From Rhizodiscina lignyota (taxonomy: Eukaryota): 64,000 nt of DNA. Each line of letters begins with the position of its first letter. Position 1 is the stretch's first letter. Both the position numbers and the translations under genes were made by a program. The notes beneath the pieces are model-generated. The model did not search any database and was not told where the DNA came from. It was given only the letters and a program-made list of their open reading frames with translations. Below are positions 19,758 to 29,580 of the stretch, piece by piece. The stretch covers positions 620,001 through 684,000 of the forward strand of contig ML978133.1 in the NCBI GenBank assembly GCA_010015805.1. Reading direction: 5' to 3'.

Positions 19758-21632
19758 ATGGCTCCGTTGAACGTGAACTCGGCGATCCTTGGGTCCCTCT
19801 TGCGACCAGACGCCTGGCTATTGATTGGCGTCCTTGCTGTCGTGGGCTATGTCGTGTACGAGCGCTTCCTGTCCCCTTGTGCAGGCATTCCGGGGCCTTT
19901 CTTCGCCAGCCTCTCCCGCTGGTGGATGATCAAGCATACTCTGGAGGGAGATATGCACAGAGTCATGATCCAGCAGCATGAAAAATACGGAAGCCTTGTC
20001 AGGACAGGGCCGAATGAATTGAGCATATCAGACCTCAGCGCAATAAGGAAAATATATGGTAGGACAAAGAGGAACTGTAGCGTGTGGACTGGCGCTAACG
20101 CCCTTCACAGGCCCCGGGTCGAAGTTCAGAAAGTCGGACTGGTACTCTGTGTGGCAGGGCCACCGGAAGTTCGATCTGTTTGCGGAGAGAAATGAGAGCA
20201 TACATGGCGCACAACGAAAGCTGGTGGCCAGAGCCTATGCGATGGAAACGTTGAAAGACCTCGAAGAATATGTCAATAATGCCACTCGTGTCTTCATTCA
20301 ACGAATGGACGAGATGCAAGACCAGGTTGTGGATATGGGAAAATGGGTTCAATTGTATGCATTTGGTATGTACACCGCTTCCTCGGCCCTCCACGTCCGA
20401 ACCTGATATCCTATCCAGACGTTATTGGTGAGATTACATTCTCAAAGCGCTTCGGCTTCATGGACGTTGGTGAAGATGATGGGACATTCGGTGCCATTGA
20501 AGGTATATTAGGATCGGCATCCTGGATAGGCCAAGTCCCATGGCTCTTCTGGTTACACGATTATCTTCAACCTGTAATTGGAAATCACCTGAAGGTCAAC
20601 GCCCGCCACGGCGGTGTCCGTAACTTTGCAGCTCGTGAAGTCGCCGCTCGGAAGGATCGCGGCAGTGACCACAACGATATTCTAAGCAAGCTGTTTGCGG
20701 TGCAGAAAGACAAGCCCGAGTTTGAGGACACTTCCGTGCTGTCCATGGCGACGTCAAATGTAGCTGCGGGTAGTGACACGACTGCCATCTCTTTGCGCGC
20801 AATGGTGTGGTATTTGCTCAAATACCCAGAGTGCAAGCAGAAGCTCGTCGAGGAGATTGATGAGAGACGGAGGCAGGGCAAACTTAGCGATCCCGTCCAG
20901 CTTGAGGAGGCCGATCAGATGCCTTACCTGCAAGCTGTCATGTGGGAAGCGCTGCGGCTTCACCCGGCCGTCGGCATGAGTTTGCCACGAGTTGTGCCAG
21001 TAGGTGGGACGGAATTCGATGGCCATTACTTGCCTGCTGGTGTACGTTATGACTTAATCTCAGTAGGCATGGCCGTGAAAGCTGACGTGTGTTCGCACAG
21101 ACTATTGTGGGAGTCAATCCGTGGGTTGTCCAACGGAACAAAGAGGTTTATGGCGAGGATGTTGAAACGTTCAGACCTGAGCGTTGGTTGAACAAAGAGG
21201 ACAAAGGCGACATGCGTACGAGTCGACTCGCCGAAATGCCTTACGGTTTGAACTGACGCATGTTGTAGAGCGGTATTTCTTCGCTTTTGGCGCTGGAGCA
21301 AGGCTTTGCATTGGAAAGAGTAGGTGCAGTGTAAATTGTTGGATGCTATACACCGCTAATACCGTCATAGACATAAGTTGGCTTGAAATGTCAAAGGTGA
21401 GCTCGTGTCTCCAGATTCTGCCCGATGATCTACTGACTGTGCGCGCAAATGCAGCTTATTCCGACATTGTTCATGCACTTTGATATCACCCTTGAAGATT
21501 CGGACGCAGAGTTGAAGGAAACATGCTGGTAAGTTCTTGAAGTGGTCGTTCATTGTTTCGGCTGACATTCGCAGGTGGTTCGTGATCCAGAAGGGCTTGA
21601 ATGTGAAGCTGAATCGTCGTATCCGTGCCTAA
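19758..21632 (+). CDS. Cytochrome P450 (pisatin demethylase/CYP57-like group), multi-exon
   Basis: N-terminal anchor, [14 protein letters not shown]-helix [17 protein letters not shown] and heme motif [10 protein letters not shown]. Several short canonical introns. Confidence 0.92.
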
Positions 21633-24600: not shown

Positions 24601-25367
24601 TCCTCCACTCCACACGTTGCTCTAAAACCCTTTCAAAGTCGCTCTTCAGACCTTCTTCTGCCAGCCGAAATGCAAAAGAGGGCGTCCATCTAATCCGGTC
24701 CCCTAATCCCATCCCAATCTTCACTCAGAATCACTCTCGCCCTCCCGCGGCAACCGTGGCAACCGTGCGTCACTAGTGCGTTCTGCCTTACAAGAGCTCT
24801 TCTCCGCCGCCGCTCTTCCTCTTCCTCTTCGCACTCTCTCCAACCAACACCACCCACACTACAACAACCTTCTTCTCTTCATCAATACCCATCTACGACA
24901 CCAGCTGAGCTGGCTGTCAGAGATCTTGCCCCTTTGATCCTTTCTTGTCGCTGCCACTGCTCTGGAGAGCTCACTGCCTCTCAAATCACGCGTCACGCTC
25001 AAGTCTGACGCCACGGGAGCACACACAAACAACAAAATTCCAGCACACACTTAAGGTAAGCTGCGGCTTGGTATTGATGCATCTATTCCCCCTTCGGCCC
25101 TACGCGTTTGAGAGAGCCCGAGATCTCGAGAGCTCAAGATCTCATCGCCGTCGATGCTTGCCTTTTGTTTTCGAGCCGTGTCAAGCTCAGCTTGAAAAAA
25201 AAAAACACGCACACACACGCACCCTTTCGTTGTGCACCCAACTCCACACCGCACGCCTGGCCCCTTTCTTACAATATACATTACCACTCATGTACCTTTG
25301 AAGTTTCGATGTTCCTGTTGATAAAACAAAACGCGGTACGTCGACAGCTTTCCTTTTGTTTCTTTAC

Positions 25368-25459
25368 ATGATGAGCAAATTGATACTGCACGCATAGCCT
25401 TTGAGCTCCTTAGGCTTTACTCTTCGGCAATGGTTGAGATATATGACATTACTCTCTGA
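25368..25459 (+). ncRNA. Intronic box C/D snoRNA 1 (target uncertain)
   Basis: Box C ATGATGA 25368 and box D CTGA 25456 inside intron 25336-25538. Box D is about 60 nt from the branch point GCTGAC. Confidence 0.68.
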
Positions 25460-25612
25460 TCCAATATGACACTCTACCACAGTTTTCGTCCGGATAAAGA
25501 CTTTGCTGTTGTGGTTTGCTGACATGCCGATACTCCAGAGATTTGTCGGCCTCTCGATCTCTTGATCTGTAATACACAGCCCGGTACGTTATACCTTCTT
25601 TTCTTCTTGTTC

Positions 25613-25704
25613 GTGAATGATGAAATTGGTAAAAGGTGTAGAGAGCCACTTGGCTACGAGCCTCGGTGGCTCTCCATGACATACTTTGCATCGTCTGATC
25701 TCAC
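25613..25704 (+). ncRNA. Intronic box C/D snoRNA 2 (antisense to U5 loop 1)
   Basis: Terminal stem gtga/tcac, box C 25617, box D 25695 and internal hairpin gagagccac/gtggctctc. TGGTAAAAGG at 25627-25636 is complementary to conserved U5 CCUUUUACCA. Confidence 0.8.
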
Positions 25705-26083
25705 CTCCGAGACCTTCCTTGGGACGCGTTCATTTTCATACATGGCTGGATGCACATGCTAACCTCCCAATACTCGCAGTGATGATTTCGAATTCCCGAT
25801 TGGCCGTTCGAAGCGCAGTGAGTCCAAACTCTCTTCATTCCACATTTTGATTGTTCAATCGGCTCATCATTTTCCGTCGTCATGTTCGCCAGCATCTTCA
25901 GGACAGCCCGGGCCCCTGGCGTTTGTCCGACTTTGTCGATCCCATGACATTCACTGGGCTTCAGGAGTCGGTCATCCGAGGACATTGTGTCCTGTCCGAG
26001 ATCAAACAGCCGGCGAGCCAAGGGCCCCTTTTCCACTGTAGAAGTCGGCCCTTTCAAAGTTAATTTCTCGGCCAGAAATTAAT

Positions 26084-26226
26084 CTCTGGGTGTGATGATT
26101 CAAATCTAATAATGGGCTACACGCTTGGCTCCCGGAAGAGTTATGAAGGGTTCCTTCTGGTTCCCTTCAAAACCGCCGGGCAGCCACTCGTACGCCATGC
26201 AGAAATAAAGGCAATCTGATCCAGAG
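26084..26226 (+). ncRNA. Intronic box C/D snoRNA 3
   Basis: Perfect 6-bp terminal stem ctctgg/ccagag, box C GTGATGA 26092, box D CTGA 26216. D-guide AAAGGCAA. Confidence 0.8.
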
Positions 26227-26595
26227 TTCTGACCGGCTGACAACCCATCCCTCCAATCTTTTCAATGTTCCTCGGTTTGCACTGATGCTCGTCGGGAGCG
26301 GCGAGAATGTATCTGATTGGCATTGATTTCCCGCTGACGCACTTATCAGATCACTTTGTCCCCTTCTCTTTCTCTCATGCATAACCCTGTTTGAGCTTGC
26401 TAACAACTCGTCTTAAACAGGCTTCGGAGGCAGATCCTTTCGCTGGCGGTCTCATTTTTCGCCTGTCACTTGCTCCGTTTGGAGATTGAGACACGGACGA
26501 GACGCCGTCAAAGACATTGATGGCGAAAAGATTGAGGCGAGCCCAGATTTCTCTTTCCATTCTTTTGCACGAGTTCCTGCACCCACTCCCGTATC

Positions 26596-26668
26596 ATGAT
26601 GAACCTACCATGCTAATGCTGAGCCGTCGGCTGTGACCATCTTCTATTGTTTCAAATCAATTGTCTGA
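26596..26668 (+). ncRNA. Intronic box C/D snoRNA 4, predicted U6 snRNA 2'-O-methylation guide (mgU6-53-like)
   Basis: Box C 26596; guide CCATGCTAAT 26608-26617 pairs with U6 AUUAGCAUGG; D' CTGA 26619; box D 26665. The fifth nt upstream of D' pairs with the A equivalent to human U6 A53. Confidence 0.87.
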
Positions 26669-27077
26669 TCCAACACGGAGAGCTATTTGCCAATCGAGCT
26701 TTGAGACTTCTCTTTAAATCCGAGCTAATACATACGATCTCCGCGCAGGCTTTCCCCTCCACCAGTGTGACGAAACACCTCTACTTCCTCCTCCTCACGC
26801 ACAACGCGAATCACCCAAGCTGCGAACGATCGATCGTTGTCTCGCCGGACTCGTGAATGACTTCTGCATGGCCTGGAACACATGTCCAATATAACAGCCA
26901 GTATTGTCGAAGCGGTTGGTTGAGCACTGTCGTACAATCCAAGGAGCCTGGAAGCTGCATTGTCTGGCCACGCAGCGGGGAAGCTGTCGTTGGATAAGAC
27001 TGGAAGAGTCAGCTTGTCCTACGTGGCCACTGTCATTGTGAGTCTGCCGTTGTTTCCTCCTTTATGGGTAGCACCAC

Positions 27078-27207
27078 GTTGGAAGGATGACAAAGATTAC
27101 GGCAAAACATACCTACCTTAGCTTCTCTTCTGCTCAAGTCAGGGTTGAGATGCAAACGGGATGAAATGACTCCCGTGGATGACCGAAAAAATCTTCGCCT
27201 GACCAAC
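27078..27207 (+). ncRNA. Intronic box C/D snoRNA 5 (variant C box AGGATGA)
   Basis: 5-bp terminal stem gttgg/ccaac, C'-like TGGATGA and box D CTGA 27199, inside intron 27038-27274. Box D is about 52 nt from GCTAAC. Confidence 0.68.
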
Positions 27208-27379
27208 ATAAACACATAGCCACGACTCTTTCTGCCATTTAAAAGTTGCTTGGGCTAACAATATGTACGGACAGGCTCGCCGCTGCCCCGACAAGATGCA
27301 CCAGAGGAGTCTGGTCCCGCACGAGAGCTTTTGCGCGTGAGTCGCTCCATTTATTTCTTCATGAGTACCACTACATTGC

Positions 27380-27476
27380 ATGATTACAACAACAAGATCT
27401 AAGCCAAGCGAGGAGAACTTACCGGCGGTATTGGGCGGGAACGCCTGATGACGACAAGATCTCAATCTTCTTCTGA
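27380..27476 (+). ncRNA. Intronic box C/D snoRNA 6 (antisense to U2 and U6)
   Basis: Box C ATGATTA 27380, C' TGATGA 27446 and box D 27473 in intron 27337-27548. GATCTAAGCCAA 27396-27407 pairs with fungal U2 UUGGCUUAGAUC; AATCTTCT pairs with U6 AGAAGAUU. Confidence 0.78.
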
Positions 27477-28149
27477 CCCACACAAACATATTGCGATGAC
27501 TGTTTCTGCGTATCACAAGTTACTGAAGCTGACAAAATGTACCACCAGATTTGCCCGGAACGAAACGGAGACAAAGACGCATGCAGGACAGGTGCAATCC
27601 GGAGAAGTCTGGTGCAAGGAAATGGCCTTTAACCGTGTGAGTCTGCACTCTGCTTTTCTTCATCAGAGTCCCATGTTGTCTTGAAAGTGATTCAAAAAGA
27701 AGACAATAATGGCTTGGTTCCTTGTGCCATGTGCATCGAATCCCAACTCGCGTGTTGAACTTGTAGTAGCAGCGATATGATCTGCAATGACCCTGCGTTC
27801 GTTGTTCAGCTCCGCTTTATATGTTACTTCGGCTAACGGAATCGTGTTTCCAGGCTCCAAGACAGCGTGAAAGTGACGGCGCCGAAGTCGTCAAAGCCAC
27901 ACTTGGACGGTACCAGCTGGCCTCCACGAGTAAGTGACATCTCAGTCACTACTGTGCTCGAAGAAACAGCTTGAACGGCGATGCTGACACCGAGAGAAGC
28001 AACGGCCAGGCCAACAAGATCATAGTCGAATACAGGCTCGAATCGAAGTGCGAATGAAAGCATAGTCGGCGGTAACGATTCAGACAGTATAGACAACCTA
28101 AGCACGTGAGTCCGGTCTCGTACTTCTGAAACCCAAAGCAGCATATTTC

Positions 28150-28316
28150 ATGATGACAACCCATAATCCAATCGTACAGGCGTCACAGCTTCGGTACACA
28201 TCGAAGTGGTTTCGCCTCGTTGCCTAACCTGCATTGCACATCGAAGTGGTTTCGCCTCGTTGCCTTAACCTGCGGTGTGTGCCGGAGTGCCCATGACGAA
28301 TTTGAAGAACATCTGA
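28150..28316 (+). ncRNA. Intronic box C/D snoRNA 7
   Basis: Box C 28150 and box D 28313 preceded by GAAGAACAT, in intron 28106-28402. Paralog of snoRNA 8. Confidence 0.75.
28197..28273. repeat. Tandem duplication with a 40-nt period inside snoRNA 7
   Basis: cacatcgaagtggtttcgcctcgttgcct(t)aacctgc at 28197-28232 and 28237-28273. Confidence 0.95.
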
Positions 28317-28530
28317 TCCTTAACAATGCCTTTGGAGCTCTGTCCTGAATTGCAAATCTTGCTTTGTCCATCCTTTGCTAACACTATTATCATCGAATAT
28401 AGGCTCAAATTGAACTTTGAAGGGAGAACGAGAGCATGGTCGACGGCAACGATTCGGACAATATGGACAACCTAAGCACGTGTAAGTCCAGTCTCGTACT
28501 TCTGAATCCGAAGCAACTTACTTCATGGAA

Positions 28531-28691
28531 ATGATGAATATCCTATAATCTTCGTACCCTAATGGGTTTTTCATCTTAGTCCATTCCATGGCTCCAACCA
28601 GACTTGTGAGGTTTCGCCTGCCATGGCACACTGGTGGAGCAATACCCCGTCTGTGTGGAGTTATGACATGCAGAAAATGAGGAACATCTGA
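28531..28691 (+). ncRNA. Intronic box C/D snoRNA 8
   Basis: Stem tgga/tcca, box C 28531 and box D 28688 preceded by GAGGAACAT, in intron 28482-28763. Box D is 50 nt from GCTAAC. Confidence 0.8.
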
Positions 28692-28991
28692 TCCAATGAC
28701 ATTACAACTTCATTCTTCTCAAGCACCTTGGATTTCCCGCGCTAACAAGGTTTTGGTAAACAGGCTCAAGACAGACGGCAGACGAAGAAGGAAGAAAGGC
28801 GTCGCGCAGACACTAAAGAGGCGTAATTGAGAATTGAGATTGATTGAAAGAGAAAGTGGAGGAGAAAGAGCTAGTCATTGACGTTCACGAGCCGAGAAGG
28901 CAGGCAGCACAGGAAGTAGACCGGCGGACTGAACCACACACACACCTTCAGTCCCAGTAAATAGCCTTTGACTCAAGATGACTTCTATATT

Positions 28992-29580
28992 CTACCGCGC
29001 CGCACTATCTCGTGATTGCATCAGCTTCCTCGCTTCCGCCTTCAACCAGCTCGCATCTGGCGGCAGTTTCGATTTTCCCTCGGGCAAAAGTTTCTCTTCC
29101 TCTTCATCTCTCATCGCATTGGCCGCGTTATAGCCCTTCCTATCCCACGGTGTGTAGTCCTTTGGTTCTTCCGGCCATACGAATGGCTTCTCCATCCGAA
29201 TTGTCATATACTTTGTGCTTATCGGTCTATGCCATTGTCTCTTTGAGGCTCGTGTCTCTGCGGGCTTGTTCGGCTGGATCGGTGATATCCTGACAACCGA
29301 TCGCACATGTAATGCTTCGACTCCATATGCATGGTAGAGATAGTCCTTCAAATCGAGTTTGTTCCAGTTCAGCGGTACGCGGAATCTTGCGAAGGTCGGA
29401 GGTAGGTGCTTTGTACGGAGAAGTGTGACAACGGCTTTGATCGGCGGCCTGCGTAGTATGTGTCAGAGAGAGTCCAGCGAGCAATGCAAACACTTTACTG
29501 AAGAGCACGACTCACAAGTATATCTCCTTCTGCCCAATCACCTTGAATATATTGCCGAATTTACGCATAGCGGTAGCCAT
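28992..29580 (-). CDS. MRP20: Mitochondrial ribosomal protein uL23m
   Basis: Exon 1 MATAMRKFGNIFKVIGQKEIYL, intron, then PPIKAVVTLLRT..LPPTFARFRVPLNWNKLDLKDYLYHAYGVE...KYMTIRMEKPFVWPEEP. Confidence 0.88.

Follow-up and report, generated by a model that had tools for sequence, protein, structure and literature searches.

The window, i.e. the whole stretch of 64,000 nucleotides that was analysed, carries at 26596-26668 of its forward strand an intronic box C/D snoRNA of 73 nt. The RNA begins with a perfect box C (RUGAUGA, 26596-26602) and ends with a perfect box D (CUGA, 26665-26668). Between them lie a 10-nt guide (26608-26617), a single spacer G (26618), a perfect box D′ (CUGA, 26619-26622), a short GC hairpin and, after it, a degenerate box C′ (26623-26637), and two accessory arms complementary to U6 snRNA, a short one at 26639-26645 and a long one at 26645-26657. 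The hairpin was read from sequence and fold; within the internal D′/C′ pair only D′ is perfect, and the place of C′ was assigned by eye. No stable fold of the snoRNA itself was found (z 0.70). A previous reading, made from the letters of this DNA without database searches (hereafter the sequence-only reading), had placed the boxes, the guide and the long arm at these coordinates. All of them were verified, and 26596-26668 is confirmed as a box C/D snoRNA feature. The succession of box C, guide and D′ occurs once in the 64-kb window and in none of 100 shuffles, and guide plus D′ is a single occurrence in the 33 Mb genome.

The snoRNA is embedded in a multi-intron host, the splice signals of which span 25056-28763 on the forward strand and include 11 branch-acceptor signals; several C/D snoRNA candidates, some of them antisense to U2 or U5, share this host. 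Downstream of box D, the sequence signals of the host intron comprise a branch-point consensus and a 3′ splice-site AG (26724-26748). The stretch from the acceptor at 26420 to box C contains no GT donor of the scanned consensus. There is, on the same strand, a candidate non-canonical GC 5′ splice site at 26537-26542, 59 nt upstream of box C, a distance that falls inside the 41-60 nt given for N. crassa (PMC2780460; here and below, articles cited by PMC number or doi are cited from the accessible parts of their text). Judging from these signals, the donor of the snoRNA intron would be either the GC site at 26537 or an upstream GT donor used via skipping. The GC-type donor-like hexamer has only two copies in 25001-29000, at 26013 and 26537, each before one of two consecutive snoRNAs, and the two possibly mark a pair of GC-AG introns.

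As for the other C/D candidates of the host, the one at 25368-25459 could pair through 25382-25391 with the branch-site region of U2 (10 bp, 1 G-U), and the one at 25617-25698 through 25626-25638 with loop 1 of U5 (13 bp, 3 G-U); the D′ boxes of both are non-canonical. In the candidate at 27379-27476, nucleotides 27396-27408 match U2 20-32 of the U2 stretch used (13 bp, 1 G-U), and 27464-27472, before box D, match U6 35-43 (9 bp, 1 G-U). A duplicated exon/donor stretch (28090-28135 and 28465-28510) precedes two long candidates with similar ends (28150-28316 and 28531-28691), and a tandem repeat of roughly 40 nt (28197-28275) lies inside the first; no convincing target was found for either. Upstream of the host, a cytochrome P450 exon (PF00067) is located at 20343-21191.

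The genome contains a single U6 match (G000:C6:1760056-1760155, 88.1 bits), which served as the organism's own U6. Equating the A of its AGC triad with A53 of human U6 gives an offset of +9 from own to human numbering, and the same offset places the third base of the ACAGAGA box on A43, as expected. The 10 Watson-Crick pairs that the sequence-only reading had assigned to the guide hold against this U6, where they cover own positions 41-50 (human 50-59). The +5 rule leads, as it had also proposed, to the A of the AGC triad: position -5 of the guide faces own A44, the equivalent of human A53. Only the wording that the guide stands directly before D′ was wrong, since one unpaired G (26618), a mismatch to U6, intervenes; it is because of this single base that +5 falls on the A of AGC. 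On its own U6, the RNA thus shows the pattern of a C/D guide, with at least 9-10 bp ending one base before D or D′ and the target at +5. In human U6 this site is methylated, Am53 being guided by SNORD8/9 (PMC7960923), and in Arabidopsis the equivalent A48 of U6 is methylated and was assigned to SnoR53Y by RiboMeth-seq (PMC8053127).

At gathering score, no Rfam family matches anywhere in the window. The covariance-model search that had been suggested as a check does yield RF00377 (snoU6-53) as the best match, but at 20.6 bits (E 0.014 for 141 bases) it stays below the gathering score of 36. The window RNA shares with the members of this family (mgU6-53/SNORD8 and SNORD9) an identical 10-nt D′ guide for U6 A53 and a short spacer from box C to the guide, and its 3′ half contains a CUUCU element as theirs does; its short arm matches the CUUCUC element of the Rfam consensus. 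It differs in its length (73 nt, against 110 model positions), in having G rather than A at position -1, in the extra 13-nt arm to U6 29-41 and in lacking a GMGUUNAA motif. The consensus of plant SnoR53Y (RF01279) is matched over 16 consecutive bases, which cover the guide, the spacer G and D′, yet only the 5′ part aligns and the score of 16.9 bits falls short of the gathering score of 43. Fungal snR53, known as CD11 in N. crassa (PMC2780460; PMC5824354), is alike in its intronic location and in its D′ guide, for which 18S Am793/796 and the same U6 adenosine are the predicted targets. By its sequence the RNA would work like mgU6-53, yet it is below the Rfam thresholds for both snoU6-53 and snoR53Y.

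The guide alone cannot identify U6 as the target, because the 10-mer that it recognises is also present in 18S rRNA. In the assembly we found rRNA fragments only (a floor, since the family searches had a stricter first look), DNA aligned to a borrowed fungal 18S stretch gave no coverage of the target site, and rRNA targets were judged on 18S and 25S sequences borrowed from locus L148, not on the organism's own. On the borrowed 18S, the guide forms 11 bp at A793 (positions 789-799), compared with 10 bp on U6, and the energies are -18.3 and -15.1, respectively. The additional pair is made by G26618 with a C that is present in 17 of 19 fungal 18S contigs, all 17 of which allow the 11 bp. A G at position -1 occurs in 3 of 12 snR53-type and in 0 of 20 hand-picked U6-type sequences, and also in the Rfam SnoR53Y consensus. 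There are precedents for a shared guide. In N. crassa, the same guide of CD11 (snR53) is printed paired with both 18S Am793 and U6 (PMC2780460), and from the printed pairing the site named U6-Am47 there would be the A53 equivalent. Both targets are found across fungi except Saccharomycetaceae (PMC5824354), and Arabidopsis SnoR53Y was assigned by RiboMeth-seq to 18S A801 in addition to U6 A48 (PMC8053127). A guide for U6, as first proposed from the sequence, is still the best reading; what that proposal had overlooked is the 18S 10-mer, the fungal and plant precedents (CD11/snR53, SnoR53Y) and the commonness of extra pairing. As a side observation from the 18S comparisons, 24 contigs of bacterial genome records (L139-L162) match a fungal-type 18S motif; five of the six that were checked contain a complete eukaryotic 18S sequence, apparently through contamination.

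A separate, canonical snR53 is encoded at G000:C8:802356. On the borrowed rRNA it pairs over 12 bp with 18S (791-802) and over 15 bp with 25S 354-368, and with U6 over only 9 bp. Its box D′ is degenerate (CUUA-type), and it has a mismatch at -2 to the borrowed 18S. This copy belongs to an intronic cluster of three snoRNAs (L126 1440-1927, G000:C8:802.3-802.8 kb) made up of an snR67-like RNA (24.4 bits, below the gathering score of 55), a middle RNA and snR53/CD11. The linkage of snR67 and snR53 we take to be a family trait. The window RNA lies outside the snR67 cluster and has neither the three-base 18S extension of the C8 copy nor its D guide for 25S 356-359 (the Pezizomycotina site), having the U6 arm instead. 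When the 3′ halves were scored against a profile of 12 hand-picked snR53-type loci, 0 of 500 shuffles did as well as the C8 copy, as opposed to 78 of 500 for the window RNA. By these sequence features, the C8 locus qualifies as the true snR53 orthologue and the window RNA does not. Since the canonical snR53 is found elsewhere and has only 9 bp to U6, the window RNA looks like a second, U6-leaning copy of an snR53-type guide.

The long arm pairs with own U6 20-32 (human 29-41) and takes in the first A of the ACAGAGA box. The sequence-only reading had described it as complementary to a fungal U6 sequence just upstream of that box, and had named failure to pair with the organism's own U6 as the result that would speak against it. 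The arm does pair with the own U6, through 12 Watson-Crick pairs and one G-U; the wobble arises because the own U6 has G where A had been assumed. The extent given for it was too short. A further seven perfect pairs connect 26639-26645 with own U6 36-42 (human 45-51), five of which (26641-26645) lie outside the guide duplex and reach right up to it. In total, the extra pairing comprises 17 bp in two pieces with U6 41-44 (human numbering) looped out. In the predicted complex, calculated with the boxes forced open, both arms fit together: own U6 20-31 and 36-50 are held and 32-35 (human 41-44) are looped out. The coordinates confirm the earlier remark that the long arm ends 7 nt before box D and is misplaced for guiding, and the possibility of a D-box methylation guide was rejected for this reason.

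A U6 helix of at least 13 bp with no more than one G-U was obtained in 27 of 20000 dinucleotide shuffles of the D′-D region and in one of 3046 window tiles, namely at this locus; if any number of G-U pairs is allowed, the counts rise to 120 of 20000 and 13 of 3046. The segment from C′ to D pairs with the own U6 at -20.2 kcal/mol, which was equalled by 11 of 3000 shuffles, and with the borrowed 18S at chance level (192 of 400 shuffles). One result counts against the U6 reading: taken alone, the 13-mer pairs equally well with 18S 1408-1420 (10 Watson-Crick and 3 G-U pairs; -12.7 as compared with -12.2 for U6). We rejected 18S as partner of the arm, because this pairing is real but the whole segment is at chance level. 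A 12-mer of the arm is present 10 times in the genome; besides U6 and this locus, the other eight copies have no upstream C box or downstream CUGA. A guide for the equivalent of U6 A53 with a non-guiding accessory arm is the best reading, and the original interpretation is partly supported. That the 13-nt arm clamps U6 is a prediction.

A second complementarity adjoining the primary duplex on the same substrate is the hallmark of extra pairing by C/D snoRNAs (van Nues 2011, via PMC6124571, PMC8522698 and PMC8053127). In the known cases it extends over 7-15 bp and is made by the other spacer; the window RNA has such a complementarity too, but deviates in having 17 bp in two pieces and a loop of U6 41-44. 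Extra pairing was reported at 45 of 104 Arabidopsis rRNA sites and at six snRNA sites (PMC8053127), yeast and human guides are further examples (PMC6124571, PMC8522698, PMC8162545), and PARIS2 has caught bipartite duplexes between snoRNAs and U6 (10.1101/2023.06.22.546166). Both the guide itself and extra pairing by C/D guides are already known, and the RNA does not represent a new class. The accessible text of PMC10484740 names, for U6 of fission yeast, no guides but those for A41 and A64. A second U6 arm does not appear in the accessible portions of PMC2377427, PMC11863803 and PMC13109388, and our searches of the mainly open-access literature brought up neither a second fungal copy nor an anchor arm common to U6 guides, nor such extra pairing in a fungal U6 guide.

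Building on the boxes, the complementarities and the second snR53 gene, we consider it rather probable that the locus expresses an intron-encoded C/D snoRNA of the snR53/SnoR53Y/mgU6-53 group that methylates A53 of U6 and owes a preference for U6 to extra pairing. Once spliced out and trimmed, the snoRNA would bind the core C/D proteins, as in the established mechanism. Its D′ guide would pair with U6 50-59 (human numbering) and direct 2′-O-methylation to the A of AGC (A53) in the ordinary D′+5 manner. The spacer between C′ and D would pair with U6 45-49 and 29-40 and loop out 41-44, whereby 27 of the 31 U6 nucleotides 29-59 would be held. This additional pairing would favour U6 over the identical 10-mer in 18S, which would be served by the canonical snR53 on C8. 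In yeast, RRM2 and RRM3 of Prp24 bind the ACAGA box and the region upstream (PMC5855946); since the arm spans this region, it would act before the U6 snRNP is assembled. Such arms may nevertheless be dispensable, because in HeLa cells a fragment comprising U6 48-70, devoid of the U6 sequence upstream, is modified (PMC6298559, where the modified sites are not named in the accessible text). 18S rRNA and the catalytic AGC region of U6 can be addressed by the same guide sequence, and in fungi and plants both are attributed to one snoRNA. A genome in which two copies apparently divide the targets would make it possible to test cleanly by genetics which snoRNA methylates U6 A53 in filamentous fungi, and whether the choice between identical 10-mers depends on extra pairing.

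The closest competitor, which we regard as unlikely, is a dual guide that methylates U6 A53 as well as 18S A793 and overlaps with the C8 snR53 without a real division of labour, the arm merely improving U6 binding. The 11 bp possible with the 18S site of 17 out of 19 fungal contigs, the G at -1 as in the Rfam snoR53Y consensus and the dual targets reported for N. crassa, across fungi and for Arabidopsis are all in keeping with it, as are the degenerate D′ of the C8 copy and its mismatch at -2 to the borrowed 18S. Against this stand the missing three-base 18S extension that the C8 snR53 possesses, the presence of other snRNA-antisense RNAs in the same host and the lack of extra pairing adjacent to the 18S site, where the best value within about 60 nt is -10.8 compared with -20.2 on U6. 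If, on the other hand, the RNA were simply a redundant 18S guide, an snR53 duplicate with a second U6 match by chance, one would expect the slightly better match of the guide to 18S than to U6 (-18.3 vs -15.1) and the failure to find an arm-bearing orthologue among the metagenome matches listed or in genome_contigs; helices that reach 13 bp or more with the help of several G-U pairs are also not rare (13 of 3046 tiles). However, the arm adjoins the U6 site of the guide in the right order, for which shuffles give a frequency of 0.1-0.4%, and the 3′ half is unlike snR53 (78 of 500 shuffles, vs 0 of 500 for the C8 copy), so that we hold this explanation to be quite improbable. We give equally little credence to the RNA being mainly a chaperone, the 17-bp arm of which would keep newly made U6 open at the ACAGAGA region while it matures, ahead of Prp24 loading, with methylation as a secondary matter. 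The arm does exceed the guide in length and covers the region contacted by RRM2 and RRM3 of yeast Prp24 (PMC5855946), but the D′ box and the +5 geometry are perfect, and ordinary guides often have 7-15 bp of extra pairing, as the 45 of 104 Arabidopsis rRNA sites illustrate. Least probable of all is an unexpressed or decaying copy, as could be suspected from an intron without canonical GT donor and from the degenerate box C′, since the locus retains boxes C, D′ and D, the guide, the branch point and the acceptor in intact form.

Metagenomes were scanned with the pattern of box C, guide and D′, which is blind to the arm, and at least 119 stretches were obtained, with 120 matches among those listed. 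A CUGA follows D′ after 28-100 nt in 90 of the 120, which fall into 39 clusters; the 30 matches without such a CUGA were left out. The cluster classes (19 U6-53-like, 6 snR53-type, 13 other and 1 with the guide at box D) were defined after viewing the sequences. Among the matches listed, the first members of 9 of the 19 U6-53-like clusters have an arm that matches the invariant U6 42-52 perfectly over 6 nt or more (shuffle mean 1.47; 0 of 1500 shuffles as good), compared with none of the 6 snR53-type clusters and two of the 13 other clusters; the single guide-at-D cluster lacks it in its first member. At a threshold of 5 nt, five of the six snR53-type clusters listed score too (69 of 1500), an effect of letters common to the arm and their 25S guide. 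The long arm was seen in none of the 90 loci among the matches listed, in which the best perfect match to own U6 16-34 is 8 nt, as compared with 9 nt in the window. No orthologue of the locus was found, and the two-arm pattern is absent from genome_contigs, a prokaryote collection. A profile built from 20 hand-picked U6-type loci was applied to the part after D′; the score of the window RNA was equalled by 36 of 500 shuffles, so that beyond the guide the RNA is not clearly of the U6 type. One match to the guide pattern in viral sequence was rejected as not snoRNA-like. At 17 loci among the metagenome matches listed, e.g. L014, L031, L041 and L080, the guide stands at box D of a double-guide snoRNA and not at D′.

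Upstream of the short arm, a GMGUUNAA motif occurs in 10 of the 19 U6-53-like and 0 of the 6 snR53-type clusters among the matches listed (e.g. L008, L033, L043, L050, L053 and L114). This is possibly a protein-binding or C′-related motif; a link to LARP7/Pof8 is our guess. As the window RNA is devoid of it, the RNA clamp might conceivably stand in for a protein-mediated recruitment.

An anchor on nearly the same stretch of U6 is seen in a second guide of this genome. The CD54-like U6 guide (L131, G000:C4:350425, minus strand) has 8 bp to human 56-63 and, near its box D, a 9-nt arm to U6 44-52 (28 of 5000 shuffles). N. crassa CD54 as printed has a 9-nt arm to U6 44-52, too (PMC2780460), and the CD54 family has a conserved U6 target (PMC5824354). 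An anchor on U6 44-52 would overlap the duplex of an A53 guide, which may explain why the arm of the window RNA extends upstream. It is conceivable, although we think it unlikely to hold as a whole, that U6 guides across eukaryotes share an overlooked anchor to ACAGAGA-AGAAG and that a fungal lineage split the dual snR53 into two genes, the U6 copy gaining a two-part clamp of 17 bp by which U6 would be preferred to 18S and nucleotides 41-44, the m6A43 position among them, would be looped out. The recurring short arm of U6 guides could be tested in human SNORD8/9.

The CD54-like guide also bears a GCGUUCAA motif, pairing over 10 bp with 5.8S rRNA. In a further intronic C/D candidate (L135 1341-1535, G000:C15:282.4-282.6 kb), the 11 nt immediately before a CUGA are perfectly complementary to U6 44-54 (human numbering), which would put +5 on A48, not on A47. 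Finally, the genome contains 17 U2 matches, 15 of them above the cut-off, as compared with one U5 and one U6, and fragments of U2, 18S rRNA and U4 are crowded together with a full U2-like copy into 1.6 kb at G000:C17:255277-256820.
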